64,000 nucleotides of DNA from an uncultured Candidatus Rokubacteria bacterium (GCA_963708025.1 CAVPSB010000002.1:128001-192000); one strand, 5' to 3'. Counted from the stretch's first letter, positions 4,420-47,611 are shown. The notes: generated by a model from the letters alone, not told the origin. Program-made: numbers and translations.

Positions 4420-4845
4420 CTACAGGCTCCGCTTCCGGCCGCGCAGGCCCCGGCGGCTGCCCTTGGTCTTGAAGGGCTTGCCGCGCGGCGCCGGCCGCAG
4501 GCCCCCGCCCCCGCCCCCGCCGAACGGATAGCCGCCTCCGCCGCCGTCCCCGGGCGGGCCCTCGAACGACCGGGGCGGCCGGGGACCTTCGGCGCGACGG
4601 CGGTCGTCGGCCATGTTGATCGTGAGCTTCCGGCCGCCCAGCTCGCGCGAGTTGAAGAGCCTGATCGCCTCGCTCGCCTCGGCCTCGCTCGTGAACTCCA
4701 CGAAGGCGAAGCCGCGCGGACGGCCGGTCTCCCGGTCGGTCGGGAGGCTCACCGCGACGATCTGCCCGGCCGGAGCCAGCAGGGCGGAAAGCTCGTCCCG
4801 GGTCGTCTGGTAGCTCAGGTTGCCGACGAAGATGCGGGCTGCGAT
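4420..4845 (-). CDS. RRM (RNP-1) RNA-binding protein with Gly/Arg-rich tail; probable ATC start
   Basis: AAGGAGG-6nt-ATC GCA GCC CGC ATC TTC GTC GGC AAC CTG gives (M)AARIFVGNLSY (RNP-2); RGFAFVEF (RNP-1). Confidence 0.9.
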   Translation of the reverse strand: MAARIFVGNLSYQTTRDELSALLAPAGQIVAVSLPTDRETGRPRGFAFVEFTSEAEASEAIRLFNSRELGGRKLTINMADDRRRAEGPRPPRSFEGPPGDGGGGGYPFGGGGGGGLRPAPRGKPFKTKGSRRGLRGRKRSL

Positions 4846-4964
4846 GGCGCGCCTCCTTCCTGTCTGACCCCCCGTGACCTCACCTCCCGGTCGCCCGGGG
4901 TCGGGTCACGGCCTGTGTTCCCGTACGGACAGCTTCTCACGACGACCGGCCCCCGGGGGTTAAT

Positions 4965-6153
4965 TTATCGGGGACGCCAGGACCGGGCTCGTCCGGTCCC
5001 GGCGCCCGCCGCAACCGCGGCGGCCGCCGGACGGTAGTCGAACCCCGCCAGCGTGACGCGCGTGATCCGCCCCCCCACCGACCGCTCGATCACCCGGAGG
5101 TCGGCCTCTTCCTCGGGGGCGACCAGCGTGAGCGCGTCGCCGGTCGCGCTGGCGCGTGCCGTGCGCCCGACGCGATGCACGTAGTCCTCGGTCGCGGGCG
5201 GCACGTCGAAGTTGACCACGTGGCTCAACGCGGGGATGTCGATCCCGCGGGCCGCGATGTCGGTCGCCACCAGCACGCGGAACCGCCCGTCCTTGAAGCC
5301 GGCCAGGGCCTGCGTCCGCTGGGCCTGGCTGCGGTTGCTGTGGATCCGGGCCACCGAGACGCCGTGCCGGTCCAGGAAGTCCGCGAGCCGGTTCGCCCGG
5401 TGCTTCGTCCGGGTGAAGGCGAGGACGCTCCGCACACCGGGCTGGCCCAGCAGCGCGACGAGGAGCGCCGACTTCAGCGGGGCCGGCACCGGATACGCGG
5501 CGTGGGTGATGCCCACCGCCGGCGCCGGCGGTCGCGCCACGTCGATCGCCACCGGGTCGCGCAGGACCTCGCCGGCGAGCGCCACGATCGGCGCGGGCAG
5601 CGTCGCCGAGTAGAGGAGCGTCTGGCGCCGCGCCGGAAGCCGGGCGAGGATCCGGCGAACGTCGGGCAGGAAGCCCATGTCGAGCATCCGGTCGGCCTCG
5701 TCCAGGACAAGGACCTCCAGGCCGGCCAGCCGGGCATAAGGGTACCGCAGATGGTCCAGCAGCCGGCCGGGCGTCGCGACCAGGATGTCGGCGCCCCGGC
5801 GGAGCGCCTCGACCTGCGGACTCATCGCGACGCCGCCGAAGATGGCGGCGCCACCGATCCGGGTGTGGCGGGCCAACCGGCGCCGCTCCTCGTCGATCTG
5901 CGCCGCCAGCTCCCGGGTGGGCGCCAGGACGAGGGCCCGGGTGACCCCGGGCTGCTTGCCGATCAGGCTTTGCAGGATTGGCAGCACGAAGGCGGCCGTC
6001 TTGCCACTGCCCGTCATGGCGCAGGCGAGGACGTCGCGGCCGGCGAGGGCCGGGGGGATGGCCTCCTTCTGGATCGGCGTCGGGACCGTGAAGCCGATCT
6101 CGTTGAACACCGCGCAGGAGGTCGGGGTGAAGGTCAAACGACGTGAACGACAT
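4965..6153 (-). CDS. DEAD-box RNA helicase (RhlE-like), one frameshift near 6105
   Basis: MSFTSFDL start; PTPIQ, AMTGSGKT, PTRELA, TPGRL, DEAD, SAT, ARGID, YVHRVGRTAR motifs. Confidence 0.95.
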
Positions 6154-6388
6154 GGCGAATGGGAATCCTCACCGGGCCCAACGGGGCCCGCTCAATCTTC
6201 CGTGGTGGTAGTGCTGGCGCGTCCCGACGTCGCGGAAGAGGCGGACAGGATGCGCGGTCTGAGCGGCCGAAGGCTCGGGAATCGAACCGACGCTCGAGTC
6301 AGACGTGAATGGACCGGCCACTGGACGGCAGGCCGCCGAGCCGGCCGGCGGCCGGGAAGAACCCCGGCGCCGGCGAGCGGGCGCCGCG

Positions 6389-6700
6389 TTACCAGCGGGG
6401 GGAGCGCCGCGGGCCGCCGCCGCCGCCGCCCGACCGGGACCCCCCACCGGCACCCGGCGAGTTCGCGACGTTCACCGTGAGCTTCCGGCCCTCGAAGGGC
6501 TGGTCGTTCAGCTTCGCGATCGCCTGCTGGGCTTCCTCGGCCGTCGCCATCTCGACGAAGCCGAAGCCGCGGGACTGCCCCGAGAACCGGTCGGTCACGA
6601 CGGCAGCGGACTCGACAGTGCCGCACTGGCCGAAGTACTCCCGTAGGCTCTCGGAGGTGGTCGAATAGGAAAGACCGCCAACGTACAACTTGGACGCCAT
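6389..6700 (-). CDS. RRM (RNP-1) RNA-binding protein, glycine-rich tail
   Basis: GGGAGG SD, MASKLYVGGLSY, RGFGFVEM. Confidence 0.95.
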   Translation of the reverse strand: MASKLYVGGLSYSTTSESLREYFGQCGTVESAAVVTDRFSGQSRGFGFVEMATAEEAQQAIAKLNDQPFEGRKLTVNVANSPGAGGGSRSGGGGGGPRRSPRW

Positions 6701-6846
6701 GGGGCGCCTCCCTGGAACCCCGGTCTGGCCGGGGGTAGACCTCTTCCGCACCTTGGTTCACGCCCCGGACACGCGGAAGAGCCTATCGGAGGCGAGGCCG
6801 GATTCGATGCGCTCGGTGGGCGCGGCAAATCGGCAGGACGCTCCGG

Positions 6847-23855: not shown

Positions 23856-24728
23856 TCACCCGCGGAACCGGGCCTCGGGCAGGCCCCGCACGCCCGGGTC
23901 GAGCGCCAGGATGCCCCCGGCCCACGGCTGCCGGGCGCGGGCCTCGGCCGTCAGGGTGACCGACGCCGAGGTCACGTACAGCACGTCCAGGTCCGGTCCG
24001 CCGAAGGCCGGGCAGGTCGGCTGCTGGACCGGCAGCCTGACGACGCGCTCGACCCGGCCGGCGGGATCGAGCCGGGTCAGTCGCCACCCGCCCCAGTGCG
24101 CGAGCCAGACGAAGCCCTCGGCGTCGACCGTCGCCCCGTCGGGAGCCCCGTCGGCGGCCGGCACCTCGAGGAACGTCCGCCGGTTGGCGATGGCGCCTGC
24201 GTCCGGGTCGAAGTCCCAGGCCCAGACCGTCCGGCGGGCGGTGTCGGCGTGGTACATCGTTCGGCCGTCCGGGCTCCAGCAGAGCGCATTCGGGCAGACG
24301 AGGCCATCGACCAGCCGGTGACACGAGAGGTCGGCGTCGAGCCGGTAGAGGCTCCCGGTCGGCTCGGTTTCCGGGTCGTGCATGCTGCCCGCCCAGAAGC
24401 GGCCCTGGCGGTCGGTCTTCCCGTCGTTGAAACGGTTCTGCGGCCGCTCGGGCTCGGGGTGAACGATCGGGGTCGTCCCGCCGGTCGCCGGATCGAAGAA
24501 GTGGAAGCCCGAGCGCATGGCCACGACCAGCCCGCCCTGCGCGCGCACGGCGAGCGACCCCACGGGCTCGGTCACCGGCCAGCGCGTGTCGGCTCCGGTG
24601 GCCGGATCGAACCGGTGGATCGCTCGCCCCTTGATGTCGGTCCAGTAGAGCCGCCGCTCGAGCAGATCCCAGACCGGTCCCTCGCCGAGCACCGCGTTCG
24701 CTTCGAGCACGCACGTGACGTCGGTTAT
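23856..24728 (-). CDS. SMP-30/gluconolactonase family protein (xylonolactonase-like); probable ATA start, alternative GTG at 24710
   Basis: LGEGPVW, RFNDGKTD..GRFWAGSM, PDGATVDAEG, CPAFGG; GGGAGG-7nt-ATA ACC GAC GTC. Confidence 0.9.
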   Translation of the reverse strand: MTDVTCVLEANAVLGEGPVWDLLERRLYWTDIKGRAIHRFDPATGADTRWPVTEPVGSLAVRAQGGLVVAMRSGFHFFDPATGGTTPIVHPEPERPQNRFNDGKTDRQGRFWAGSMHDPETEPTGSLYRLDADLSCHRLVDGLVCPNALCWSPDGRTMYHADTARRTVWAWDFDPDAGAIANRRTFLEVPAADGAPDGATVDAEGFVWLAHWGGWRLTRLDPAGRVERVVRLPVQQPTCPAFGGPDLDVLYVTSASVTLTAEARARQPWAGGILALDPGVRGLPEARFRG

Positions 24729-24731
24729 TTG

Positions 24732-24824
24732 GGGACCTCCCGCCTACCCCCCCCCTCAACCCCCCTCGCCCACCCATGGACGGTCTTCGGCCTTTGGCTG
24801 GGGGGAGGGGGGAGTCGGAGGCCC
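24732..24824 (-). repeat. Palindromic intergenic repeat, family A copy 2
   Basis: Reverse complement of the 3171-3258 element; its end provides the lactonase SD. Confidence 0.85.
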
Positions 24825-24832
24825 GCACTGCT

Positions 24833-25726
24833 TCACACGGTCTCCGGGGTCAGGGTGATCGTCGCCGCGAGGGTCTCGCCGGGCTCGAGGGTCCGGAGCC
24901 CGGTGTCCGGCCGTCCGGCGGCGGCGAGGTTGACCGCGTCGGTCACGTGGCTGACCGGCTCCGCGCAGAAGAAGGCCTGGCCGGGCGGCGTGTAGAGCAC
25001 GAGGAAGTCGAGCGGCCCCTCTGCGGTCATGGCGAGGCGGGCTCCCCACTCCGGCCACTCGACCACGACATGCCGACTCCAGCCAGTGAAACAGTTGTCG
25101 AGGCCGACCGCGTCGAGGCGGATGCCCCGCGCGGGGTCCGACCCCGGCGGCGGCATCGCCAGCGTCGTCGGCATGACCTCGCGGTCGGTCAGCCACATGC
25201 CGGTCACCCCGGCCTCCAGCGTGGCCCGGGGCGTTCGCACGAAGTAGGGGTGCCAGCCGAGACCCGCCGGCATCGCGGCCTCGCCCTCGTTGGTCAGCGC
25301 CAGCTCCACCGTCAGGCGCTCGGGTGCCAGGGCGACGCGCTGGCGGGCCCGGTAGGCCCACGGCCAGGCGTCCGCCGGGTGCCGGTACTCGATCTCGGCG
25401 TGCGCGGCGTCCACCGCCACCGGGTGCCATGCGGCCTGCCACCCGTGGCCGTGCATGCAATGGGGCAGGGGCGGGCAGTTCAGCGGCAGGGCGACCGCCC
25501 GGCCGCGGAAGCTGAAGCGTCCCTCCCGGATCCGGTTGGAATACGGGACGAGCGGAAAGGCCGCCATGCCGTAAGCGTCGCGCCGGGTGACGGCGTCGGT
25601 CGCGGCGGGGCGTAGCCACTCGATCGGGGTCGCGGCCGTCTCGCGCCAGTACCGGGCGATCGACCCGCCGACGGCCGGGGTCAGCACGAGTCCGGCGTCG
25701 CCCGCGCGCAGCGTGATCGGTTGCAT
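24833..25726 (-). CDS. Aldose 1-epimerase (mutarotase) family protein
   Basis: FPLVPYSNRI, HGHGW, YPWAY-like segment, GLGWHPYF, FCAEPVSH. Confidence 0.9.
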   Translation of the reverse strand: MQPITLRAGDAGLVLTPAVGGSIARYWRETAATPIEWLRPAATDAVTRRDAYGMAAFPLVPYSNRIREGRFSFRGRAVALPLNCPPLPHCMHGHGWQAAWHPVAVDAAHAEIEYRHPADAWPWAYRARQRVALAPERLTVELALTNEGEAAMPAGLGWHPYFVRTPRATLEAGVTGMWLTDREVMPTTLAMPPPGSDPARGIRLDAVGLDNCFTGWSRHVVVEWPEWGARLAMTAEGPLDFLVLYTPPGQAFFCAEPVSHVTDAVNLAAAGRPDTGLRTLEPGETLAATITLTPETV

Positions 25727-29790: not shown

Positions 29791-29922
29791 GTGCCGACGC
29801 CCACGTGCCTCACGGATGCGCTCGGCTGGCCTGGGGGAACCACCGTTGCGCGGTTGCTGCGCGCCAGCGTTCTTCAGTACACTCCACGTCGTTGGATGAT
29901 CCCGGGGTGAGGGAGGCCGGGG

Positions 29923-30630
29923 ATTTTCGACACCAGCGACGAGAGAGTCGTCCCCGAGACCCGCATCGGATTCTGGTTCCTCGGCACGCACACGTGGGTG
30001 ACCCGCGTCCTCCGGGTCGCCCTCGACGATCTCGATCGCTTGTTCCCGAATCGCCGGGCGAGCTACCCCGTCGTGCTCGACGCCGGATGTGGACAGGGCC
30101 GGTCGTTCAAGCTGCTGTGTGAGCGGTTCGCCCCGGAGCGCATCATCGCGATCGACGCTGAGGAGCGATGCCTGGAGCGGGCCCGCGCGGAGGTGGCGCG
30201 AGAGCGGCTGCCGGTTGACGTTCGCTTCGGCACGCTCGGCACGATCGATCTGCCCGACGACAGCGTGGATCTCCTCTTCTGTCACCAGACGTTCCATCAT
30301 CTGGCGCATCAGGAGCGAGCCTTGCGCGAGTTCTATCGGGTGCTGAAGCCGGGCGGGATCTTTTTGTTCGCGGAGTCGACCCGCGCTTACATCCATTCGT
30401 GGATCATTCGCTTGCTGTTCCGCCATCCGATGGACGCGCAGCGCAGCGCCGACGAGTACATGGCGATGATTCGCGCCCAGGGGTTCGTGTTTCAGCCGGA
30501 GAACACGTCGTTCCCGTACCTGTGGTGGAGCCGCTGGGACCTGGGCGCGCTCGAGTGGCTCGGCTTCCCCCCGCCGAAGCACCGCGAGGAAACGCTGATC
30601 AATCTGGTGGCTCGGAAGCCCACCGGCTGA
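29923..30630 (+). CDS. Class I SAM-dependent methyltransferase; probable ATT start
   Basis: VLDAGCGQG, FCHQTFHH, RVLKPGG; GGGAGG-6nt-ATT with in-frame stop at 29908; N-terminal VPETRIGFWFL..HTW lies upstream of the first GTG. Confidence 0.88.
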   Translation: MFDTSDERVVPETRIGFWFLGTHTWVTRVLRVALDDLDRLFPNRRASYPVVLDAGCGQGRSFKLLCERFAPERIIAIDAEERCLERARAEVARERLPVDVRFGTLGTIDLPDDSVDLLFCHQTFHHLAHQERALREFYRVLKPGGIFLFAESTRAYIHSWIIRLLFRHPMDAQRSADEYMAMIRAQGFVFQPENTSFPYLWWSRWDLGALEWLGFPPPKHREETLINLVARKPTG

Positions 30631-33269: not shown

Positions 33270-35354
<2,085 letters not shown>

Positions 35355-35468
35355 CCCCGCCGGGGGCGCCGGCCGGGCCCCCGGGCGCCGCCTGACCGGT
35401 GCGACGACCACCCGGGTAGAACCCCCGTCAGGGTGTTGTAACTCATGGGCGCCGGGTCCGGTCGGACT

Positions 35469-35489
35469 CTGTCAGGGTTTTCCTGACAG
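35469..35489. promoter_or_regulatory. Inverted-repeat operator candidate
   Basis: CTGTCAGG-GTTTT-CCTGACAG, perfect 8-bp arms in an AT-richer intergenic patch. Confidence 0.45.
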
Positions 35490-35517
35490 CGGACGGCGCG
35501 GTAGACTCACGGCCTGA

Positions 35518-36863: not shown

Positions 36864-36898
36864 GGGGCCGGCCTATCCCCGGCCGGAACCGTACGGCG

Positions 36899-36952
36899 TT
36901 GACAGACCGCTACTCACGCGCTTAATTAGAGCGGTCGGACCGGCAGTGTCAA
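36899..36952. promoter_or_regulatory. Symmetric bidirectional promoter candidate
   Basis: TTGACA (+, 36899) and TTGACA (-, 36952) each 18 nt from the shared palindrome TAATTA at 36923-36928. Confidence 0.5.
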
Positions 36953-37011
36953 GCCTCTTCTGCTGCGGCCATTCACCACGTCCCGGACGGAAGTCCAGGG
37001 AGGAGGACGCG

Positions 37012-38217
37012 ATGCGACGACGGGGGGGTTTCGCGGCTGTCATCGTCCTGCTGCTCGCGGTCGGGCTCGGCGCCTGGCCGGCGGTGGCGGCCGCCCAGAC
37101 CATCAAGGTCGGGGCGGTGGTGCCGCTGACCGGGCGGTACGCGGCGCTGGGGGCCCAGGTGCGGCCCGGCTACGAGATCGCGATCGAGGACATCAACAAG
37201 GACGGCGGGGTGACCGTCGCCGGCAAGAAGATGCCGATCGAGCTGATCTTGCTGGACGACGAGTCCGACGCGACCAAGACCGTCGCCCGCCTCGAGACGC
37301 TGGCTGCGCAAGGCGTCGTGGCCTACCTGGGGGGGGCCGGCTCCGATCTCCACGCGGCGGCCGCCTCGGTGGCCGAGAAGAACAAGGTCCCCTATCTCGG
37401 GATCGCCTTCGCCCTCAACAAGATCCACCAGCAGGGCTTCCGCTATCTCTTCTCGCCGTTCTGGAAGTCCCCCGACATCGGCCAGCAGCTCGCCCCGCTC
37501 CTCTCCTCGATCCCCGCCGCCGAGCGGCCGAAGCGGGCGGCCATCTTCCAGGAGAAGACGGACTGGGGCCGGGAGATGGCCGCCGCCTATGCCGACGCCG
37601 GCAAGGCGGCGGGCTTCGAGGTGGTGGTGCAGGGCGAGTACGCGCCGGGCGCCAAGGACTACTCGGACCTGATCCTCAAGGCCAAGGCGGCTCAGGTCGA
37701 CTCGGTCTATGGCCTCCCGACACCGCCCGACGGGATGGCGATGATCAAGCAGATGAAGGAGCTGGACTTCAACCCGAAGCTGGCGCTCCTGATCCGGGCG
37801 CCGGACGGTCCGGTGTGGGTCCAGAACCTGGGCAAGGACGGCGACTACGTGATGCTGGCGCCGGGCTGGCACAACGGGGTGAAGTACCCCGGGGTCGCCG
37901 AGCTCAACGCCGCGTACACCAAGCGCGTGGGCCGGCCGGCCGACCCCCTGACCGGCCCGAGCTACGCCTGCGTGCAGATCCTGGCGGCGGCCCTCACCAA
38001 GGCCGGCGCCGCCGACCGGGAGAAGGTGCGCGACGCCATCGCCGCCACCGACCTGACCGGCACGGTGATCGGGCCGGTCAAGTTCCGGCCGGACGGGACC
38101 GGGATCGTCCAGTCGGTCTTCATCCAGTGGCAGAACGGCAAGCAGGAGCTGGTCTGGCCCAAGGAGTTCGCGACGAAGCCGCTGGCCTACCCAGCACCAC
38201 CGTTCTCCAAGCGCTAG
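37012..38217 (+). CDS. Liv-type (HAAT) ABC substrate-binding protein
   Basis: GGAGGA SD; signal peptide, IKVGAVVPLTGRYA, DDESD, QWQNGK..LVWP. Confidence 0.92.
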   Translation: MRRRGGFAAVIVLLLAVGLGAWPAVAAAQTIKVGAVVPLTGRYAALGAQVRPGYEIAIEDINKDGGVTVAGKKMPIELILLDDESDATKTVARLETLAAQGVVAYLGGAGSDLHAAAASVAEKNKVPYLGIAFALNKIHQQGFRYLFSPFWKSPDIGQQLAPLLSSIPAAERPKRAAIFQEKTDWGREMAAAYADAGKAAGFEVVVQGEYAPGAKDYSDLILKAKAAQVDSVYGLPTPPDGMAMIKQMKELDFNPKLALLIRAPDGPVWVQNLGKDGDYVMLAPGWHNGVKYPGVAELNAAYTKRVGRPADPLTGPSYACVQILAAALTKAGAADREKVRDAIAATDLTGTVIGPVKFRPDGTGIVQSVFIQWQNGKQELVWPKEFATKPLAYPAPPFSKR

Positions 38218-38220
38218 AGC

Positions 38221-38399
38221 CTCGGGGGCGGTCTCGGAAGGCCTCGGCCTGCGGATGTCGCCGCCGCGTACTCGGAGGCCGCGGCGAAGCCGCGGCTCGG
38301 AGCGGCACGCCAGGGCCGCGAGCCTCGAGCCGCCCGGGAGGTTGCGCGCAGCCGATGGGCGGCGGAGCTAAGCACCAGGGTCTGCCGAGACCCCCCGAG
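38221..38399. repeat. Long palindromic repeat, family C
   Basis: Arms CTCGGGGGCGGTCTCGG / CCGAGACCCCCCGAG; internal GGAGGCCGCGGCGAAGCCGCGGCTCG shared in reverse with 58424-58456. Confidence 0.7.
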
Positions 38400-38437
38400 A
38401 CCAGGAGCCGAGGGATTGCGAGAAGCTACGGGGACCG

Positions 38438-39208
38438 TTGCTGACGGGCGCTGAGCCGCCGCCGCTCCTCAGCCTGGAAGGCGTTTCCAAGGCCTTCGCT
38501 GGGGTCCGGGCGGTCTGGGACGTCAGCCTCGAGGTGCCGGCCGGGGCCGTCCTCGGCGTGATGGGGCCGAACGGCTCCGGCAAGACCACCCTCTTCAACC
38601 TGATCAGCGGCGCCATCCGGCCCGACCGGGGCCGGATCCGCATCCGGGGCGCGGAGATCACCGGCCTCCCGCCGCACCGGGTGTGCGCCCACGGGATCGC
38701 CCGGACGTTCCAGCACGTCCGTCCCTTTCCCGGCCTCTCGGCGCTCGACAACGTTCTCGTCGGGCAGCTGTACGGCCGCCGGCGGGGGCGCGACGCCGCG
38801 GCGGGCGAGGCCGAGCGCCTCCTGGCCCTGGTGGGGCTGGCCGGCAAGGCCGACGTCCCGTGCGCGCGGCTGAGCCTGCTGGAGCGGCGGCGCCTCGAGC
38901 TGGCCCGAGCCCTCGCCACCGGCCCCGAGCTCCTCCTGCTCGACGAGTTCATGGCCGGCCTGACCCCGAGCGAGACCGCGGAGGCGATGGCCGTGATCCG
39001 GCGGGTCCACGACGCGGGCGTGACCCTCGTGATCGTGGAGCACATCGTCTGGGCGCTCCTCGACCTCTCGGACCGCATCCTCGTGCTGAGCGCCGGCGAG
39101 AAGATCGCCGACGGGCCGCCGGCCGCCGTGGCGGCCGACCCGGCGGTCGTGGACGCGTATCTCGGCAGCTGGGGCAGCTCGGAGAGCGGACCGCGTGCTC
39201 GAGGTTGA
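38438..39208 (+). CDS. Liv-type ABC ATP-binding protein (LivG-like)
   Basis: GPNGSGKTT, GIARTFQ, LELARALA, LLLDE, VEH. Confidence 0.92.
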   Translation: MLTGAEPPPLLSLEGVSKAFAGVRAVWDVSLEVPAGAVLGVMGPNGSGKTTLFNLISGAIRPDRGRIRIRGAEITGLPPHRVCAHGIARTFQHVRPFPGLSALDNVLVGQLYGRRRGRDAAAGEAERLLALVGLAGKADVPCARLSLLERRRLELARALATGPELLLLDEFMAGLTPSETAEAMAVIRRVHDAGVTLVIVEHIVWALLDLSDRILVLSAGEKIADGPPAAVAADPAVVDAYLGSWGSSESGPRARG

Positions 39209-39914
39209 AGGGCTCGACGTGACCTATGGCGAGCTACGCGCCCTCTCCGGCGTCTCGGTCCGCGTCGGCCCCGGCGAGATCGTCGCCCTCGTCGGCTCGA
39301 ACGGCGCCGGCAAGACGACCCTCCTCCGCGCGATCGCGGGGCTGGTGCGCCCGCGGGCCGGCCGGACCCGGTGGGAGGGCGACGACGTCACGGGCCGGAT
39401 GGCCCACTGGCTGGTCGAGCGGGGCATCGCGATGGTGCCCGAGGGCCGGCGGCTCTTCGGGCGGATGACCGTGGAGGAGAACCTCGGGCTCGGCGCCTTC
39501 ACGGCCCGCGCCCGGGCGGAGCGCGAGGCGACCCTGGAGGCGGTGTACGGCACGTTCCCGCGCCTCCGGGAGCGGCACCGGCAGCGCGCCGGCTCGCTCT
39601 CGGGCGGCGAGCAGCAGATGGTGGCGATCGGTCGCGCGCTCATGACCCGGCCGCGACTCCTGATGCTGGACGAGCCCTCGCTCGGCCTGGCCCCCCGGAT
39701 GGTCGAGGCGATCTTCGGCGTGTTCGGCGAGATCAACCGCGCCGGCGTCGCGGTCTTCCTGGTGGAGCAGAACGTCCGGGCGGCGCTGGCCCTCGCCCAC
39801 CGCGCCTACCTCCTCGAGCACGGCCGGATCGTGGGCGAAGGGCCGGCGGCGGCGCTCCTCGACGATCCCCAGGTGCGCCGGGCGTACCTGGGGCCCCTCG
39901 CGGTGGCCCGGTGA
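39195..39914 (+). CDS. Liv-type ABC ATP-binding protein (LivF-like)
   Basis: GSNGAGKTT, VPEGRRLF, LSGGEQQM, DEPSLGLAP, VEQN. Confidence 0.93.
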   Translation: MLEVEGLDVTYGELRALSGVSVRVGPGEIVALVGSNGAGKTTLLRAIAGLVRPRAGRTRWEGDDVTGRMAHWLVERGIAMVPEGRRLFGRMTVEENLGLGAFTARARAEREATLEAVYGTFPRLRERHRQRAGSLSGGEQQMVAIGRALMTRPRLLMLDEPSLGLAPRMVEAIFGVFGEINRAGVAVFLVEQNVRAALALAHRAYLLEHGRIVGEGPAAALLDDPQVRRAYLGPLAVAR

Positions 39915-40783
39915 GGATCCTCCTCCAGCAGCTCATCCTCGGGCTCCTGCTGGGCGGCCTCTACGGCCTGGCGGCCGCCGGACTGTCCCTGATCTTCGGC
40001 GTCCTGAAGGTCCTCAACGTCGCCCACGGCGAGCTGATCATGCTCGGCGGCTACGCGGCCTACTGGCTGGCGGCCGGCCTGGGGTTCGACCCGTTCGTCG
40101 CCCTCCTGGGCGTGATCCCGATGATGGCCGCCCTCGGCCTCGCGCTCTATGCGGGTCTCTTCGCGTTCGTGGTCCGCTTCGACGAGGAGACGCGGATCAA
40201 GAACTCGCTGCTGGTCGGCTTCGGGCTGGCGCTGGCGCTGCACGCTCTCGCCGTCCGGCTCTGGACCGCCGACGAGCGCGCGATCCCGACCACCTACGGG
40301 GGCCAGCCGATCGTGGTGGGCGGGCTCGTCATCCCGCTGGCCCGCCTGGCCAGCGTGGCGATTGCCCTCCTGCTGATCGGGCTCACGCACCTGTTCCTCG
40401 TCCGGACGCGCTGGGGTCACGCCATCCGGGCGGCGGCCGAGGACTGGGAGGCGGCGTGTCTGCAGGGGATCGACGTGCGCCGCGCGTACCTGCTGGCGTT
40501 CGCGCTGGGGACGGCCCTGGCCGGCGCCGCCGGCTGTCTGGTCGCGGTGGGCTACTCGATCAGCCCCGCCATCGGGTTCGAGTGGACCTTCAAGGCTCTC
40601 ATCGTGGTCGTGCTGGCCGGGCTCGGCTCCCTGTTCGGGACCTTCGTGGGGGGCCTCGTCCTCGGCGTGGCGGAGGCGGCCAGCGCGATGACGTTCGGCG
40701 GGCCGTACCGCGAGGTCGTGGGGCTCCTGCTCTTCTTCTGCGTGCTGATAGCCCGGCCGCAGGGCCTCTTCAACCGTGGATGA
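39911..40783 (+). CDS. Liv-type ABC permease (LivH-like)
   Basis: GLSLIFGVLKVLNVAHGE, G.AIRA, RPQGLF. Confidence 0.92.
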   Translation: MRILLQQLILGLLLGGLYGLAAAGLSLIFGVLKVLNVAHGELIMLGGYAAYWLAAGLGFDPFVALLGVIPMMAALGLALYAGLFAFVVRFDEETRIKNSLLVGFGLALALHALAVRLWTADERAIPTTYGGQPIVVGGLVIPLARLASVAIALLLIGLTHLFLVRTRWGHAIRAAAEDWEAACLQGIDVRRAYLLAFALGTALAGAAGCLVAVGYSISPAIGFEWTFKALIVVVLAGLGSLFGTFVGGLVLGVAEAASAMTFGGPYREVVGLLLFFCVLIARPQGLFNRG

Positions 40784-40850
40784 ACGGCCCGGGGCGGGGC
40801 CCGGGGCCGTGCCGGGCCGGCGCTGCGGTGTCTGACCGCAGGCGGGGAGA

Positions 40851-41807
40851 GTGAGGGCGAGGCGGAGGGTCGATCTGCGGGCGCCGGCTGCCACCGTGGT
40901 CGGGCTGGCCGCCCTGGGCGTGGTGCCGCTCCTCGTCCGGCGGGAGGACGTGCTGAACGTCGGGGTCGTCTTCCTCCTCTCGGTGGCGCTCGCCCAGAGC
41001 TGGAACATCGTGGCGGGGCTCGCCGGCCAGGTCAACCTCGGTCACGCCGCCTTCTTCGGCCTGGGCGCCCTCGTCGCCCGCACCCTGTGGGTGGCGGGGA
41101 CGCCCATCGCGCTCGCGATGGCGGCCGGGGCGGCGGTGGCGATCGCGGCCGGCGTCGCGGTCGGGCTGGTGGCCTTCCGGCTGCGCGGCGCCTACTTCGC
41201 GATCGGCACCCTGGCCCTGGCCGAGATCCTCCGCGTGAGCGTCGGCAACGTGCTGCCCGAGATCTCGACGCTGCCGGCGGCGACGATCGCCGGCTACCGG
41301 CTGACCGCCCGCTACTACGTGGCGCTGGCCCTCGCGCTCGGCTCGGTCCTGGTGGTGACGGCGCTCGTCGCCTCGCGGCTCGGCCTCGGCATGCAGGCCG
41401 TGCGCGAGGACGAGGCGGCGGCCGAGGCCTCCGGGGTCGGCGCGCTCGCGGTGAAGCTCCGCGCCGTCGCCCTCTCCACCGGGCTGGCCGGGCTGGCCGG
41501 CGGGGTCTTCGCCTACTACCACATCAGCTACTACCCCCAGCACGCCTTCAACCCGGCGTGGACGTTCGACGCGCTGCTGATCACCTTCATCGGCGGCGTG
41601 GGGACGGTCCACGGGCCCGTGCTCGGCGCCCTCTTCTACGTGCTGGTGAAGGAGTACCTGGCGGTGCGCTGGGTCGATTTCCACCTGCTCATCTTCGGCC
41701 TGCTCTTCATCGCCATCGTCCTGCTCCTGCCCGGCGGGATCGTGGAGGCCGCCGCCCGCCTGCGCCGGCTGAGACGGCCGGTCGCCTCCGCCGGGCCTCT
41801 GCCTTGA
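40851..41807 (+). CDS. Liv-type ABC permease (LivM-like)
   Basis: SWNIVAGLAGQVNLGHAAFFGLG, LRGAYFAI, AVREDE.AA, GGVGT..GP. Confidence 0.92.
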   Translation: MRARRRVDLRAPAATVVGLAALGVVPLLVRREDVLNVGVVFLLSVALAQSWNIVAGLAGQVNLGHAAFFGLGALVARTLWVAGTPIALAMAAGAAVAIAAGVAVGLVAFRLRGAYFAIGTLALAEILRVSVGNVLPEISTLPAATIAGYRLTARYYVALALALGSVLVVTALVASRLGLGMQAVREDEAAAEASGVGALAVKLRAVALSTGLAGLAGGVFAYYHISYYPQHAFNPAWTFDALLITFIGGVGTVHGPVLGALFYVLVKEYLAVRWVDFHLLIFGLLFIAIVLLLPGGIVEAAARLRRLRRPVASAGPLP

Positions 41808-41934
41808 CGCACCATCGCGAGGTCCACGTTCGGAACGGATGGTGAGCGGACCACGGGCGAGGCCGCCCGGTCCGTGGGGAGTATGGTAGGGTAAGGTTTC
41901 CATCGAGAAAAGGACCGTGGCCACGGAGGCGCGC

Positions 41935-42933
41935 ATGCGAGGGATGACGGCCGTCCTCGTCGGATTGCTCGCGCTGCTGGCGTCGATCGGCGCCGGCGCC
42001 CAGACCCCGGCGACGCTGCAGGTGATCGTGTTCCCCGGTGGCTTCAACTGGCCCATCTGGGCGGCCCAGGAGAAGGGCCTCTTCGCCCGCGAGGGGCTCG
42101 ACGTCAAGCTCACGCCGACGCCCTCGTCCGTCTTCCAGCTCCAGAACCTGATCGAGGGCAAGTTCGACATCGGGAGCACCGCCTTCGACAACGTGGTGGC
42201 CTACCAGGAAGGCCAGGGCGAGGCCCCGGTGTCGGGGACGCCCGACCTCTTCGCCTTCATGGGCGGGGACAACGGCTTCCTCCGGCTCGTGGTCGTGCCC
42301 GAGGTGAAGAGCTACGCCGACCTCCGGGGCCGGGAGCTCTCGGTCGACGCGCTCACCACCGGGTACTCCTTCGTGCTCCAGAGGATGCTCCAGGCGGGCG
42401 GTCTGCAACAGGGCGACTACGCCCTGGTCCGCGCCGGCGGCGTCCTGCAGCGCTGGGAGGCGCTCCGCGAGAAGAAGCACGCGGGGACGATGCTGATCAC
42501 GCCGTTCGAGGTCATGGCCGAGGCGGCCGGGTTCCACCGGCTCGGCAACGCCGTGGACGTCCTGGGCCGCTACCAGGGCCTGGTGGGCGCGGCGCGCCGG
42601 TCGTGGGCGCGGGACAACCCGGACCGGCTGGTCGGCTACATCCGCGCCTATCGGGCGGCCCTGGCCTGGCTCTACGACCCCGCCAACCGGGCCGAGGCGC
42701 TCCAGATCTTGCAGAAGAACGTGCGCGGGATGACGCCCGAGCTGGCGGGCAAGACCCACGAGGTCCTGCTGGCGCCCGCCGGCGGGTTCGAGCGGAGCGC
42801 CGCGCTCGACCTGGAGGGGGCGCGCACTGTCCTCAAGCTGCGGAGCGAGTACGGGCAGCCCCGGAAGGAGCTGACCGACCCGACCCGCTACGTCGACCTC
42901 TCGTACTACGAGCGAGCATCCAGGCCTCGTTGA
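41935..42933 (+). CDS. SsuA/THI5/NMT1-like ABC substrate-binding protein
   Basis: Signal peptide; AQEKGLFAREGLDV, SYADLRGR.LSVDALTTGY. Confidence 0.85.
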   Translation: MRGMTAVLVGLLALLASIGAGAQTPATLQVIVFPGGFNWPIWAAQEKGLFAREGLDVKLTPTPSSVFQLQNLIEGKFDIGSTAFDNVVAYQEGQGEAPVSGTPDLFAFMGGDNGFLRLVVVPEVKSYADLRGRELSVDALTTGYSFVLQRMLQAGGLQQGDYALVRAGGVLQRWEALREKKHAGTMLITPFEVMAEAAGFHRLGNAVDVLGRYQGLVGAARRSWARDNPDRLVGYIRAYRAALAWLYDPANRAEALQILQKNVRGMTPELAGKTHEVLLAPAGGFERSAALDLEGARTVLKLRSEYGQPRKELTDPTRYVDLSYYERASRPR

Positions 42934-42951
42934 GCCAGTAGGAGGACCATC

Positions 42952-43864
42952 ATGCCAGTCCGAGCCCTGCTCCATTACGCGCTCGAGATTCCCGATCAGA
43001 CCGTCGGCGAGACCTTCTACCGGACGTTCGGGCTCGTCGGCGAGTCCGCGCGGGACGACGCGGTGCACCTCCGCCCCGCCTCGCTCGGAGCGGGAGTGCA
43101 CCCTCCTCTACCCGGGCCCGCGCAAGCGCCTCCATCACCTCGCCTTCGGCGCCCCCGGGGACGAGTTCGCGGCGGTGCGGGAGTCGATCCGCCGGGCCGG
43201 CGTCCGCGAGGTCGATCCGCCCCGGGGCGCGCCGGAGGGGGGCGTGTGGATCCGCGACCCGGACGGCAACCTCGTGAACGTCCGCCCGGAGGGGGGCCAG
43301 GAGCCGCCGGCCGACCCGCCGCTGGCCGTCAACACCCCGGGGCACATCCTGCGCGAGGTGGTGCGCGGCTACCCTGATCGGGGCCTCCAGCCGGCGCCCC
43401 GCAAGCTCGGCCACGTGCTCTTCTTCACCCCGGACGTGGACCGCCAGATCGACTTCTACATGCGCGTCCTCGGCCTCAAGCTCTCCGACCGGGTGAAGAG
43501 CCTCATCGCGTTCCTCCGCTGCACCACCGATCACCACAACCTGGCATTCCTCACATCGAAGGGGCCGGGGTTCCACCACGCCTCGTTCCAGGTCGGCTCG
43601 GTGGACGAGATCGCGCTCGGCGCCGGCCGGATGCGGGACGCCGGCTGGCAGATGGGGTGGGGCCTGGGCCGCCACGTGATCGGGTCGAACTACTTCTACT
43701 ACACGCGCGACCCCTGGGGCAGCTTCGCCGAGTACTACCACGACCTCGACTTCATCCCCGAGCAGTGCGCCTGGACCCCGCGCGACTTCCCGGAGGAGGA
43801 CTCGCTCTACGTCTGGGGCCCGCCGCTGCCCCCGGAGTTCGTCGAGAACACCGAGCTGACCTGA
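42952..43864 (+). CDS. Two-domain VOC family protein (extradiol dioxygenase-like), frameshift near 43085
   Basis: AGGAGG SD; LHYAL, RDPDGN, KLGHV, DHHNLAF, HHASF, WGLGRH.IGSNYF.Y.RDPWG...EY. Confidence 0.85.
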
Positions 43865-43865
43865 G

Positions 43866-44585
43866 ATGGTGCGTCGTCTGCTCCTGACGCTCCTCCTCCT
43901 GGCCGGGGCGGCGGCCGCCTCGGCCGAGCCGATCCTCGACGCCTTCGAGGCGGCCGCGCTCGGACCGCTCTGGACGGCCCGCGCGGTGCCGGGGCGCGTC
44001 ACCATCCAGGGGGACATCGTCCGCTCGGGCGCCTCCGCGGTACGGCTCGAGGTGAACGAGGGCGACATGGCCCAGGTGGGCGGTGACAGCGAGGCGACAG
44101 AGCGGGCGGAGATCCGGGAGGCGCGCGGACTCGAGGCGCGCTTCGGCGAGACTCACGAGTATCAGTTCAGCATGTACGTCCCGGTCGACTTCCCCATCGT
44201 CGACACCCGGCTCGTCACCAGCCAGTGGAAGCAGGACTGCGACGTCTGCTCCAGGAACCGGAGCCCGATCGTGGCCCAGCGCTACCGTCGGGGGGTGCTC
44301 CTCGTGACCATCGAGACGCTGAACGGCCGCTCCACGATCTACCGGCATCCCGAGACGATCCAGGGACGGTGGCTCGATCTTCGCTACCGCATCCGGTTCG
44401 GATGGACCGATGGCGCCGTGACGGTCTGGGTGAACGGGGCGCGCGTGGTCGACTACAAGGGGCCGCTCGGCTACCCGGACGACCCACCGCTGGTGCGCTT
44501 CGGGATGGGCCCCTACCGGAACCGGATGAGCCAGCCGATGGTCCTCTACTTCGACGACTACCGGAGGGAGCGCGTGACCGAGTAG
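43866..44585 (+). CDS. Secreted polysaccharide lyase / heparin lyase I-like protein
   Basis: Signal peptide; G..AVR.EV..GD, ERAE, Y.FSMY.P.DF, QWKQ, GRW, G.YR, YFDDY. Confidence 0.7.
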   Translation: MVRRLLLTLLLLAGAAAASAEPILDAFEAAALGPLWTARAVPGRVTIQGDIVRSGASAVRLEVNEGDMAQVGGDSEATERAEIREARGLEARFGETHEYQFSMYVPVDFPIVDTRLVTSQWKQDCDVCSRNRSPIVAQRYRRGVLLVTIETLNGRSTIYRHPETIQGRWLDLRYRIRFGWTDGAVTVWVNGARVVDYKGPLGYPDDPPLVRFGMGPYRNRMSQPMVLYFDDYRRERVTE

Positions 44586-44679
44586 CGCCGGCCGGCGCCG
44601 ACCTCACGCCGGCCGGCCCCCGTGCCCGCTTCTGGGGCTGCCACCGGGCCTTCGTGGTACCCTTCAGGTCGAGCGCCGC

Positions 44680-45150
44680 ATGGAATTCGAGCGGTTCCTG
44701 GCGGTCTTACGGGCCCTCGAGCGCGAGGGGGTCGAGTACGTGCTCGTCGGCGCGACCGCGCTGGGCCTCCACGGGATCATCCGCGCGACGGAGGACATGG
44801 ACCTGTTCGTCCGCCCGGCCGCCGACAACGTCGAGCGCCTCCGGCGAGCGCTCCGCTCCGTCTGGGACGACCCCGACATCGACCAGATCAGGACGGAGGA
44901 CCTCGCCGGGGAGTTCCCGACGATCCGGTATGGCCCGCCGGGTGAAGACTTCGTCATCGACCTTCTGTCCCGCCTGGGCTCGGCGTTCGGGTTCGACGAT
45001 CTCGAGGCCGAGATCGTGATGGTCGAGGGGATCGGAGTGCGCGTGGCGACCCCCTCGACGCTCTACCGGATGAAGAAGGACACCGTGCGGCCGATCGACC
45101 GGGCGGATGCCGCCGCGCTCAGGGAAAAGTTCGGGCTGCGGGACGGGTAG
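44680..45150 (+). CDS. Nucleotidyltransferase-fold protein
   Basis: V.YVLVG..A..LHG..RATED.DL motif; L..MK....R..D..D. Confidence 0.8.
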   Translation: MEFERFLAVLRALEREGVEYVLVGATALGLHGIIRATEDMDLFVRPAADNVERLRRALRSVWDDPDIDQIRTEDLAGEFPTIRYGPPGEDFVIDLLSRLGSAFGFDDLEAEIVMVEGIGVRVATPSTLYRMKKDTVRPIDRADAAALREKFGLRDG

Positions 45151-45151
45151 G

Positions 45152-45391
45152 ATGCCGGTCGAGCGCTTCCGGGACCTCGATGCGGCGCGACGGGCGCTGT
45201 GGGCGGCCCGTGACGACCCGAACCTGACCGCCCGCATCCGCCGGCTGTGGAGCATCGCGTCGCGCCTGGTGCCGCTCGGGATCCCGCGAGGCGTCAGGAA
45301 GTTCCGGCGGATCGAGGATGCCAACCGCGAGCGTGAGGCCTGGGTCGAGCGGCGCGTCCGCGGGCTCCGCCGGGAACGGGCTTCGGACTGA
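45152..45391 (+). CDS. Small basic hypothetical protein coupled to the nucleotidyltransferase
   Basis: ATG 1 nt after upstream stop; MPVERFRDL...PRGVRKFRRIEDA..ERE.W. Confidence 0.7.
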   Translation: MPVERFRDLDAARRALWAARDDPNLTARIRRLWSIASRLVPLGIPRGVRKFRRIEDANREREAWVERRVRGLRRERASD

Positions 45392-45401
45392 GGGCCCCCA
45401 G

Positions 45402-46334
45402 TCAGCCACGCTTCCCGCGTCGCGGCGGCGGGGAGAGGCGTCCCGAGGGCGAGACGACGACCGTCTCGAAGTGCGCGGGCACGGCCACTTCGCTCCTCGG
45501 TGCCACCGCCTTGACCTCGGCGACGAACGACCGCGTCCCCTCCCGGGCCTCGGCCTGGGACGCCCCGAACGGGAGCCCCTGCTCGTCCCAGTGCGTCGCG
45601 ATCACGACTCGGGGCCGACCGAGGGCGCGCAGGAGCCGTCCGGTGTAGTCGTGGATCTCCAGGCGCGGCCACGCGGCCGCGATCAGGACGATCCCCGGTC
45701 GGAGCCCCTGGACCTCGCGCTCGATGTAGTTCATCGAACCGAAGACGAGGATCTGGTGTCCGCCGAGGCGGATCAGGTACGCCAGGGTGCCTCCCTCCAC
45801 GTAGTCGCGGAGCCTGAGGGGCGGCACGACGTCGCGCGATACGATGCCGGAGCTGGAATAGTGCTTGGCGCTCAGGGCGGAGTGGAGACTCGGGACTACC
45901 GCGATCGAGAGGCGTTCGAACTCGTAGTCCTCGCCGCCGCGCACCGTCAGGATCTGCACGTCGGGAACCCCACCGGCTCGGGCGACGTTCGCCGTGCTCT
46001 CGGTGCCGATCACGGTTGCCCCGGTCTTTCGGGCGATGTACGGCATGTCCATGCAGTGATTGAAGTGGGAGTGGGACAGCAGGATGAAGTCGGCCCGCGG
46101 GACGCGGGCGTCGATCGTCGCCGCGTCGGTCGCCGGCACGTCGTCCATGGTGAGCAGCGGGCGGGTGTCGCCGGGAACCGCGACCGCATCCGGCGCACCG
46201 AACGTTCGCCCACTGAAGCGGATGCGCGATAGGTACGGATCGAGGAGCACGGTGTTCCGCCCGTCGCTGATGATCCAGCCGGCGGCGCCCAGGTGCGTGA
46301 GGTGCAATCGCGCTCGGCCGCGCCCCGTTCCCAT
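45402..46334 (-). CDS. MBL-fold metallo-hydrolase
   Basis: LLDPYLSR, SHSHFNH (variant of HxHxDH), SLHS, THWD. Confidence 0.85.
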   Translation of the reverse strand: MGTGRGRARLHLTHLGAAGWIISDGRNTVLLDPYLSRIRFSGRTFGAPDAVAVPGDTRPLLTMDDVPATDAATIDARVPRADFILLSHSHFNHCMDMPYIARKTGATVIGTESTANVARAGGVPDVQILTVRGGEDYEFERLSIAVVPSLHSALSAKHYSSSGIVSRDVVPPLRLRDYVEGGTLAYLIRLGGHQILVFGSMNYIEREVQGLRPGIVLIAAAWPRLEIHDYTGRLLRALGRPRVVIATHWDEQGLPFGASQAEAREGTRSFVAEVKAVAPRSEVAVPAHFETVVVSPSGRLSPPPRRGKRG

Positions 46335-46354
46335 CACCGACGCCCCGGACGGAC

Positions 46355-47498
46355 CTACCAGAACTCGCGCGAGGCCAGCCGGGCGCCCTCGGCCATGCTC
46401 GCCAGCTTGGCCCAGACCACCCCGGGATCCACGGCGGCCTGACCGACCCAGGTGCCGTAGCCGCAGTCGGTCCCCGCGATGACGTTCTCCCGGCCCACCA
46501 GCTTCGCGTAGCGCCCGATCCGCTGCGCCACCAGCTCGGGGTGCTCGATGAAGTTGCTCTTCGACTCCAGGACCCCGGGGATGAGGACCTTGCCCTCGGG
46601 CAGCCGGACGCGCTCGAACAGCCGCCACTCGTGGGCGTGGCGGGGGTTGGCGGCCTCGAACGAGATGCCGCTCGGCCGGGCGGCGAGCACGATGTCGATG
46701 ATGTCCGCCAGCGGCACGTCGTGGTGGTGCGGACCCTCGTAGTTGCCCCAGCACACGTGCATGCGGACCCGGTCGGGCGGGACGTTGGCCAGGGCGTGGT
46801 CGAGGGCCTCCACGTGCAGTCGCGCCATCTTTCGGAACTGCTCGAGGCTCAGGTCGGCGAACTGGATGTGCCGGCCCATGGCGAGGTCCGGGCAGTCGAC
46901 CTGCAGCACGAAGCCGGCCTCGACCACCGCCTCGTACTCGTGACGCATCGCGTCCGCGATGCCGGCCAGGTAGGCTTCGTGGCTCGGGTAGTGGTCGTTG
47001 CGGAAGAAGAGGGAGATGACGCCCGGCGAGGCCGCCGTCAGGAAGGCCTCCTCGGCGCGGGTGGCGGCCAGCGCCGCCCTCAGGTTCTCCGCGTCGGCGA
47101 CCGCGGCCTGCGGATCGCGCACGCTGATCGGCCCGTCGCAGGCCGGGGTCCGGCGCCGCGACCGTCCGGGATCGCCGAAGACCCGCTTGGCCAGCTCGGG
47201 GAAGTCCACCAGGTCGCGGTACCGGAGCGACTGGCTCGCGCCGCCGAACCCGGCCAGGCGATCCTTGACGTAGGTGGCATAGCTCGGCTTGCTGAGCTCG
47301 CCGTCGCTGACGATGTCCACGCCGGCCTCGGCCTGCTTGCGGACGACCTCGGCGACGGCCGAGCGGATGCGCGCGGCCAGGGCCCCGCGGTCGACGGGCA
47401 CGCCCTCCTCCCGGGCGAACATCATGCGGACCAGGTCGTCGGGCCGCGGCAGGCTGCCCGGCGTGCGTGGTGAGGAACCGATCCGTGCTGCGCTTGAT
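46355..47498 (-). CDS. Cobalamin-independent methionine synthase II / MetE-like protein; probable ATC start; frameshift near 47460
   Basis: (M)KRSTDRFLTTH.GSLPRP, SDGE, LQVDCPDL, HVCWGNYEGPH, FEAANPRH.HE, TDCG. Confidence 0.9.
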
Positions 47499-47499
47499 T

Positions 47500-47611
47500 G
47501 GGACCTCCCGCCTACCCGATCGTCCGACGGCCTTCGGCCTTTGGCCCCCCTCCCCCACCCATGGACGGCCTTCGGCCTTTGGCCGGGGGGGAGGGGGGGG
47601 TCGGAAGGGGC
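47500..47611 (-). repeat. Palindromic intergenic repeat, family A copy 3 (two core modules)
   Basis: GGGACCTCCCGCCTACCC..GACGGCCTTCGGCCTTTGG twice..GGGGGAGGGGGG..TCGGA; provides the SD for the MetE-like gene. Confidence 0.85.

Follow-up and report, generated by a model that had tools for sequence, protein, structure and literature searches.

ATH codons behind Shine–Dalgarno sequences at four genes of an uncultured Candidatus Rokubacteria bacterium, and a hairpin repeat that adjoins two of them

Four unrelated genes in a 64,000-nucleotide stretch of DNA from an uncultured Candidatus Rokubacteria bacterium (GCA_963708025.1, CAVPSB010000002.1:128001-192000; hereafter the window) carry an ATC, ATA, ATT or ATC codon a few nucleotides (nt) behind a strong Shine–Dalgarno (SD) sequence, where the N-terminus of the encoded family should begin. 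Why should such codons, here termed ATH in DNA and AUH in mRNA (H being A, C or T/U), recur at the starts of genes within so short a distance? The first-pass annotation of the window, which had located the four sites, proposed either a lineage-wide relaxation of start-codon discrimination or a regulon sensitive to initiation factor IF3; it was silent on two of the four SD sequences belonging to a repeat, and on three of the four cases being specific to this genome. We consider it fairly probable that the four sites represent three different things: a conserved weak start at the gene of an RNA recognition motif (RRM) protein, start slots made by an abundant hairpin repeat at a lactonase gene and a MetE-like gene, and a methyltransferase gene that has lost its canonical start.

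Direct reading of the window, together with stop-to-stop open reading frames (ORFs), finds all four sites as they had been described, three of them on the minus strand. A Pfam search confirms the four gene families, a GGAGG-type SD lies 5-8 nt 5′ of the ATH codon at every site, and the claim that the ATH codons stand at the first-codon position of their families holds for all four; at three of them (RRM, lactonase and MetE-like) orthologs have their start codon at exactly that position, an agreement that, with ATT and ATA being very rare codons here, goes beyond chance. Initiation at any of these codons is predicted from such comparisons of sequence. The window corresponds to G000:C2:128001-192000 in an assembly (G000) of 8.17 Mb in 49 contigs with a GC content of 71.2%; close homologs in public records carry the labels Methylomirabilota or Rokuibacteriota. 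Orthologs were compared across 40 related genomes, many of which are fragmented metagenome-assembled genomes (MAGs) and one of which (G038) is unpublished. Because alternative open frames in 71% GC DNA made a simple SD scan too noisy, coding frames were called with a six-frame codon model trained on 1060 long ORFs.

First codon of the RRM gene

The RRM gene (4423..4845, minus strand; stop codon 4420-4422) comprises 141 codons counted from the ATC at 4845-4843, which follows AAGGAGG (4852-4858) after a 6-nt spacer (start region 4843..4858). Numbered from this ATC, residues 5-74 match positions 1-69 of 70 in the Pfam RRM_1 profile (PF00076; E 3.6e-22), with a score of 78.4 bits against a curated cut-off of 20.7, and the match spans both RNP-2 and RNP-1. 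The next canonical codon is a GTG at codon 32; a start there would lose RNP-2, since RRM_1 begins at residue 5.

A protein search finds the gene in all 40 relatives, and its first codon was read at 23 orthologous loci (56-100% identity) in 19 genomes from three families of the order. It is ATT at 14 loci, ATC at eight and ATG at one. ATT or ATC, thus kept in 22 of the 23 loci, has an SD 6-8 nt upstream, and at 20 of these 22 there is an in-frame upstream stop with no ATG, GTG or TTG between it and the ATH codon. Within 79 codons downstream, 17 of the 22 have a canonical codon, at distances of 4-75 codons. At the same aligned position, the 18 paralogous loci (38-49% identity) have ATG in 16 cases and GTG in two. 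The ordinary usage of ATC, ATT and ATA in this genome is 36.1, 1.0 and 0.16 per 1000 codons, respectively; ATT is thus some 36-fold rarer than ATC as a codon, and its prevalence at the RRM start suggests that it is kept as a start signal and not for isoleucine. Since the 22 loci come from independent assemblies, the RRM codon cannot be an assembly error.

The two remaining ATH loci, L325 (G004) and L047 (G030), are assigned to different families; their upstream 22-mers are identical, their codon patterns agree and both have 65% identity. They may be one contig that is present in two bins. The closest RRM homolog outside the order (L242, 61% identity) lies in an Acidobacteria-labelled MAG (JAJDNV010000023.1), and its first aligned codon is an ATC behind a purine-rich stretch; either the ortholog group is wider than the order or the bin is mislabelled. 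In a wider scan of genome contigs, distant RRM genes from other phyla mostly have, as judged by eye, a canonical codon 1-4 codons before F-V-G-N-L.

Escherichia coli infC, the gene for IF3, has an AUH start and is autoregulated by IF3. Like it, the RRM gene has a conserved AUH first codon behind a good SD, and the infC gene of the genome under study also begins with ATC. Conservation of the non-canonical codon, the hallmark of the infC type, is found for the RRM gene only: an ATH codon is present in 0 of 8 lactonase orthologs and in 0 of 15 MetE-like orthologs. The alignment of orthologs that was suggested when the sites were first noted accordingly upholds the ATH codon for the RRM gene, and shows ATG or GTG in relatives for the lactonase and MetE-like genes.

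A second E. coli gene with such a start is pcnB (AUU), work on which is cited in PMC13009471; the product of the RRM gene is an RRM-type RNA-binding protein, whereas infC and pcnB encode a translation factor and a poly(A) polymerase, respectively, and the likeness to both is one of sequence alone. For Staphylococcus aureus, the same paper describes conserved non-canonical starts with extended SD sequences (cvfC1, AUU; ccpN, AUA; citZ, AUA; infC, AUA), and states that AUU and AUA starts give roughly 10% of the output of AUG in reporters (PMC13009471). The RRM gene resembles these cases in that AUU or AUC is kept among relatives behind a strong SD; it differs in phylum, in the gene concerned and in being known from its sequence, and the repeat-linked cases described below differ in not being conserved among relatives. 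The RRM gene would be a new member of this conserved AUU/AUA-start kind. A narrow search of the open-access literature found no AUH start in a bacterial RRM gene, and no repeat of the type described below in this lineage.

On the comparative evidence, the ATC of the RRM gene is a predicted conserved weak start like that of infC. The gene would be translated from a conserved AUU or AUC behind a strong SD, a design it would share with infC; the weak codon would keep synthesis of the protein low and would probably render it sensitive to IF3. Of the two explanations first put forward, IF3-sensitive control is plausible for this gene, given ATT or ATC in 22 of 23 loci, and for this gene only. A conserved AUU/AUC on an RRM protein from an uncultured soil lineage would add a regulator-type gene to a very short list of genes with AUH starts, and the RRM start would offer a clean case for IF3-linked control outside model bacteria.

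These starts also bear on annotation. The public record for the genome's own RRM protein (P0123) has 111 residues, begins at the GTG and lacks RNP-2; its relatives are truncated, extended to distant GTGs, or begun at a later isoleucine codon. Some NCBI records begin MFVGNL, and a start at the isoleucine codon of R-I-F-V-G-N-L was considered and rejected, because the distance from the SD to this codon is 18 nt in the window and because orthologs have ATC, ATA, GTG or GTC there. ATH starts such as those predicted for the RRM and lactonase genes would lead to systematic mis-annotation, with public records beginning at downstream GTGs. The RRM gene is immediately preceded, on its own strand, by a DEAD-box RNA helicase gene (4965-6191, minus strand); no such pairing was seen within 1.5 kb at 15 loci of relatives.

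Start-codon use across the genome

If discrimination were relaxed throughout the lineage, IF3 or the initiator tRNA would tolerate AUH and ATH starts would be freely used, as might be indicated by the finding, within a single genome, of several family N-termini with an ATH or CTG codon. The translation machinery does not have the features that this would predict. In infC of this genome, GGAGGG is followed after 8 nt by an ATC in frame with the IF3_N domain, and no other plausible start was found before that domain; an infC gene with its own ATC start makes sense only if AUH is discriminated against, which argues against relaxation. Four tRNAs have the anticodon CAT, one of which bears the hallmarks of an initiator and is canonical, with a C1xA72 mismatch and three G-C pairs (GGG/CCC) in the anticodon stem. 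Both 16S copies retain the usual CCTCC anti-SD at their 3′ end.

Codon counts lead to the same view. For codons that follow GGAGG and begin a coding frame not far beyond an in-frame stop, we compared the counts at spacings of 5-8 nt with those at 12-15 nt. ATG occurs 302 times at the shorter spacings against 47 times at the longer, GTG 86 against 38, and TTG 8 against 2; the corresponding figures are 36 against 45 for CTG, 24 against 40 for ATC, and 4 against 2 for each of ATT and ATA. The genome-wide count that had been suggested as a check on the four sites thus reveals an enrichment of ATG and none of ATC, from which we infer that ATH is not in general use. Furthermore, ATG or GTG stands at the corresponding codons in relatives belonging to the same family and order, and the non-canonical cases outside the RRM, infC and methyltransferase genes are nearly all tied to one repeat. 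With infC, the initiator tRNA, the ATC counts and the relatives all pointing the other way, lineage-wide relaxation is not supported, and we regard it as very unlikely. The sole non-canonical peak in the counts is CTG at a spacing of 7 nt (24 sites, against 2-20, median 7.5, at seventeen other spacings).

A hairpin repeat before the lactonase and MetE-like genes

The lactonase, of the SMP-30/gluconolactonase family (23859..24728, minus strand), has 290 codons from the ATA at 24728-24726, which follows GGGAGG (24736-24741) after a 7-nt spacer; the next canonical codon is a GTG at codon 7. Pfam SGL covers residues 14-255 (E 1.2e-93). Eight orthologs of 71-81% identity have a start codon at the ATA position, ATG in the closest and GTG in the other seven, whilst three more distant ones (58-59%) have different N-termini. 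Among closer relatives, the lactonase of a 98%-identical strain (P0241) is annotated from GTG codon 7, giving 284 residues; a 94% relative begins with 'L' (that is, TTG or CTG) at the ATA position, and a 91% relative begins with 'V' two codons upstream of it. These differences indicate that the start is evolutionarily unstable within the genus, and to judge from the annotated proteins the absence of a canonical start codon is probably not peculiar to this assembly. The six codons from the ATA to the GTG still encode the conserved T-D-V-T-C, and low-level synthesis of the lactonase probably continues, starting from the ATA or from GTG codon 7.

The MetE-like gene (Meth_synt_2; 46358..47498, minus strand) presents an ATC (47498-47496) behind GGGAGG (47504-47509) with a 5-nt spacer. 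The frame that this ATC opens extends for 14 codons only (IKRSTDRFLTTHAG) before a +1 frameshift, and the remainder (SLPRPDDLV...) lies in another frame, the main frame being 46358-47455 with a stop at 46355-46357. The break results from one extra base in the run 47457-47459 relative to all 15 orthologs, one of them from G038, each of which has a run shorter by one base and, in place of the ATC, an ATG. With a frameshift besides the ATC, this copy would be either broken or mis-assembled. A paralog of 60% identity (G000:C2:214808-215896), also fronted by the repeat, has an intact ATG and reads GAATGAAG.

The SD regions of these two genes share a longer string, of which one 17-mer has 376 occurrences in the genome when up to two mismatches are allowed. 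The string is the 3′ end of a repeat that has the orientation of the downstream gene. One copy (24729..24840, minus strand) fills the gap from the TGA of the upstream frame (24833-24835) to the lactonase, its 3′ end supplying the GGGAGG at 24736-24741; a second (47499..47631, minus strand) extends from an upstream-frame TGA (47629-47631) to the MetE-like gene and likewise supplies its GGGAGG, with a duplicated GCCAAAGGCCGAAGGCCGTC module, a 38-nt direct repeat and a 12-nt inverted repeat. A third copy in the window (3160-3270, plus strand) has its anchor at about 3242, followed by GACCTGAAGTCG.

The 5′ motif of the repeat has a consensus near CTGAGAGCGTGTGAAGGAATGGG and contains two TGAs that are not in the same frame; next comes a CCTCCG stretch. 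In the middle, a C-rich arm and a following G-rich arm enclose a short loop, or else one or two GCCAAAGGCCGAAGGCCGTC modules. The 3′ end reads GGT[A/G]GGCGGGAGGTCCCGAA and then a tail, most often CTGA (CGAACTG follows at 81 of 463 anchors); its layout is GGGAGG, usually TCCCGAA, and a slot codon, of which the consensus is CTG (as CTGA) and the variants are ATG, TTG, ATA, ATC and ATT. Between the 5′ motif and the SD there are most often 79-82 nt, with further, longer classes, and the element measures about 80-140 nt. The A/G polymorphism (GGT[A/G]GG) lies six codons before the slot and reads TAG or TGG in the slot frame; the TAG form closes the frame of the gene five codons before its start. 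In seven tandem units of about 100 nt (G000:C2:216020-216720), each ending GGGAGGTCCCGAATGACGGGCAAGG, the SD and ATG are reiterated.

With the copy at 24729..24840 as a query, G000 yielded 545 first-look candidates, and all 21 copies that were scored have 81-100% identity. Full-length matches occur only in G000; in the 40 relatives, many of them fragmented, 37 gave no match and three gave short partial ones. A search of the whole window against Rfam returned zero families at the gathering score. The repeat is more unusual than the ATH starts themselves.

Of 433 anchored copies, 166 have no coding frame directly downstream and 267 do. The latter were sorted by slot, taken as the best in-frame codon 4-10 nt after GGGAGG: the slot is ATG in 64 copies, TTG in 12, GTG in seven, CTG in 36, ATC in 17, ATA in 12 and ATT in four, whilst 102 have none of these codons and in 13 the frame opens later than the slot. 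Non-canonical slots (CTG, ATA, ATC or ATT) thus front 69 genes, and ATG, TTG or GTG slots 83. The CTG slot has a spacing of 7 nt in 35 of 36 copies and is followed by A in 32 of 36; an A also follows the slot in eight of 12 copies with TTG and eight of 12 with ATA. The fixed spacing and the following A indicate that the slot belongs to the tail of the repeat. TTG, and ATG at the same spacing, are each one substitution away from CTG; most ATG slots lie one base closer, at a spacing of 6 nt (22 of 64). At the lactonase and MetE-like genes, we propose that this lineage-specific repeat has come to occupy the gap between the upstream stop codon and the gene, and that its slot has replaced an ancestral ATG or GTG.

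Similar replacement is suggested at other repeat-fronted genes, whose orthologs were checked in five related genomes. At the position of an ATA in G000, ATG or GTG is found in the two closest of five Gfo/Idh orthologs and in four of five ThrC-like orthologs; at the position of an ATT, four of five CaiB-like orthologs have ATG. The ruvB orthologs have ATG or GTG at or beside the ATC of G000, the hydantoinase orthologs have ATG or GTG at its codon 2 (ATC), and one relative has TTG at the CTG position of ruvC, the others starting further upstream. For PGDH, the closest ortholog has its ATG one codon upstream of the position of the G000 ATT, and the ATT itself aligns with codon 2 (GCC) of that ortholog, which indicates that the repeat replaced the first codons, as opposed to an ATG having mutated.

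In many of the 69 non-canonical cases a canonical codon follows within a few codons. We examined the 40 that are separated from the next canonical codon by a distance of 8 codons or more: in 15 of them the frame contains no canonical codon all the way back to the upstream stop, and in 16 a Pfam domain (profile start at or before position 5) would be cut by the next canonical codon. Single-copy ruvC is such a case, with no in-frame ATG, GTG or TTG in the 41 codons from the upstream stop to its CTG, and with a next canonical codon that would cut off the start of the RuvC domain; ruvB is likewise single-copy. Such genes are either dead, or near-cognate initiation works behind the SD of the repeat. 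At G000:C25:159700-165500, outside the window, ruvC, ruvB, a CsaA-like tRNA-binding gene and queA are each directly fronted by the repeat, with CTG, ATC, CTG and CTG slots, respectively.

Were they dead, insertion of the repeat would have destroyed the starts, and the lactonase, the MetE-like gene, the methyltransferase and many repeat-fronted genes would be young pseudogenes. The MetE-like gene, with two lesions within 45 nt (the ATC and the frameshift) and a 60% paralog that retains its ATG, fits such decay, as does the apparent recency of a repeat not found in 37 of 40 relatives. The remaining genes fit it poorly: they are of full length and free of stops, with 290 of 290 residues aligned for the lactonase, 386 of 388 for Gfo/Idh, 408 of 410 for the ThrC-like, 393 of 397 for the CaiB-like and 525 of 526 for the PGDH protein; the single-copy genes ruvC and ruvB are among them; and the T-D-V-T-C codons of the lactonase, between the ATA and the GTG, are intact. 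Decay as a general explanation seems to us rather unlikely.

More speculatively, the repeat may be a portable translation-initiation cassette which permits initiation even at CUG, AUA, AUC or AUU slots, a proposal that we hold tentatively and think somewhat doubtful. Its 5′ end would contribute TGA stops in two frames and an anti-SD-like CCTCC, and its 3′ end a start slot behind GGGAGG; on reaching the stop codon of the upstream gene, a ribosome would unwind the foot of the stem and expose the SD, and initiation at the slot would follow. Action of the repeat through SD masking or translational coupling would fit the predicted fold of the copy at 24729..24840 (-59 kcal/mol), in which GGGAGG pairs with the upstream 5′ CCUCC; in 84 of 229 copies the pairing partner of the SD is the 5′ CCTCC-like stretch. 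Coupling by unmasking, with the terminating ribosome opening the stem base, would suit the layout: in most of 18 cases inspected by eye, the upstream-frame TGA lies in or just before the 5′ motif. The frame that ends at the TGA or TAA of the tail has an upstream canonical start in 133 of 167 cases, against a mean of 97 of 167 in two control frames, a weak excess that is modest for stop-poor, G-rich sequence. A translated ORF running through the repeat was rejected, the lengths from 5′ motif to SD being distributed 90/84/84 modulo three among 258 copies.

If this cassette proposal is correct, the start regions of some 150 genes have been rewired, and up to about 70, including single-copy ruvC, would need near-cognate initiation; a mobile repeat could then replace start regions genome-wide without killing genes. 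If the CTG and ATA slots do initiate, the genome would show how far an SD can compensate for a near-cognate start.

The repeat is reminiscent of two known families. MIRUs are short mobile repeats that insert at the start codons of co-directional genes with a 4-nt stop/start overlap (PMC12548453). Like them, the present repeat directly adjoins a downstream coding frame (267 of 433 copies), its slot and the following A give NTGA or ATAA, and it forms tandem arrays. It differs in lacking a frame-preserving internal ORF, its lengths not being multiples of three (90/84/84), and in bringing its own SD, a long C-rich/G-rich hairpin and often a near-cognate start; the comparison is one of layout, not of sequence. 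TAACTGA heptamer repeats, which occur in intergenic regions just upstream of starts in Beggiatoaceae and cyanobacteria, have a proposed translational role (PMC4679880). They too are abundant and lie within a few nt of starts, and the tail GAACTGA is one base different; however, they are tandem and without a hairpin or SD, whereas here a single tail ends an element of about 80-140 nt. The resemblance of the tail to the heptamer may be coincidental.

The methyltransferase gene and the case for assembly error

The methyltransferase gene (29923..30630, plus strand; 235 codons and a stop) encodes a class I S-adenosylmethionine-dependent enzyme (Pfam Methyltransf_11/25 and related families). Its start region (29908..29925), which is outside the repeat, consists of a TGA (29908-29910), GGGAGG (29911-29916), a 6-nt spacer and the ATT (29923-29925). 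The TGA is five codons upstream of the ATT, and from this stop to the conserved V10 there is no ATG, GTG, TTG or CTG. Alignment with 22 homologs shows invariant residues from E12 to W25, all encoded before the next canonical codon, a GTG at codon 26. At E <= 1e-20 the 40 relatives yielded no ortholog; homologs elsewhere number in the thousands. Among the metagenome matches listed (55-73% identity), all 77 that were readable have an in-frame ATG, GTG or TTG no more than 25 codons before the conserved V-P-E, and a 96% relative (P0001) begins with an 'L' aligned to codon 2 of the window gene, which is TTC here. The likely history, as these homologs suggest, is the loss of a TTG start that left the ATT at an ideal spacing. 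The gene would then have lost its canonical start, with the ATT behind GGGAGG as the only near-cognate codon left upstream of the conserved N-terminus.

Several observations weigh against our reading of the four sites as a conserved weak start, repeat-made slots and a lost canonical start, and against the role proposed for the repeat. Related genomes are not independent samples, and fewer independent events lie behind the figure of 22 of 23 RRM loci than it suggests. A lactonase start at GTG codon 7 would also be compatible with the SGL match, which begins only at residue 14. The copy at 24729..24840 folds no more stably than shuffled sequences do (z = -0.58), and SD masking is partial: in the minimum-energy folds of the 229 copies, at least five of the six SD bases are paired in 86 and at least three in 188. 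Just six of the 40 candidate genes both lack an upstream canonical codon and have a Pfam domain that would be cut, namely genes for a TctB-like protein (CTG), an enoyl-CoA hydratase (ATA), a hydantoinase (CTG, with codon 2 ATC), a Gfo/Idh/MocA protein (ATA), RuvC (CTG) and a PALP enzyme (ATA); many of the others could start at a GTG or TTG that lies in frame within the repeat. Finally, the assembly carries frame-breaking indels, of which the extra base at 47457-47459 in the MetE-like gene is one, and a RecQ-like ORF also looks shifted; a substitution error at the lactonase, methyltransferase and MetE-like sites is possible, with a low probability.

On that account, the ATA, the ATC and the TTC/ATT at these three sites, and the codons of other repeat-adjacent genes, would be ATG or TTG miscalled through hairpins rich in G/C homopolymers. 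Besides the indels, it is favoured by some related metagenome contigs, which lack one base at 47457 as the MetE-like orthologs do, by a contamination estimate of 8.18% for the assembly, and by repeat lengths that vary by single bases. The repeat copies themselves speak against a deterministic context error, 64 of them being followed by an intact ATG, including AAATGA beside AAATAA variants. The lactonase of the independent 98% strain has its annotated start at the downstream GTG, as though this strain also lacked a canonical codon there, and three hits on the third bases of start codons within 64 kb would seem to require a substitution rate far above that suggested by the few visible indels. 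The RRM codon, as its presence in independent assemblies makes clear, is not open to this explanation. Taken across the three sites, we judge miscalling to be quite unlikely.

The public sequence runs that match the window (Logan contigs from soil, bog and sediment metagenomes) share at most 0.34 of its words and consist of short contigs from related strains; four such runs, compared with 29800-47700 of the window, contributed thousands of short contigs from relatives. The RecQ-type helicase frame mentioned above (21080-23833, minus strand; 917 codons) continues into some 300 residues rich in Arg, Pro and Gly that resemble an out-of-frame C-terminus, and may represent another single-base assembly indel or a broken gene.

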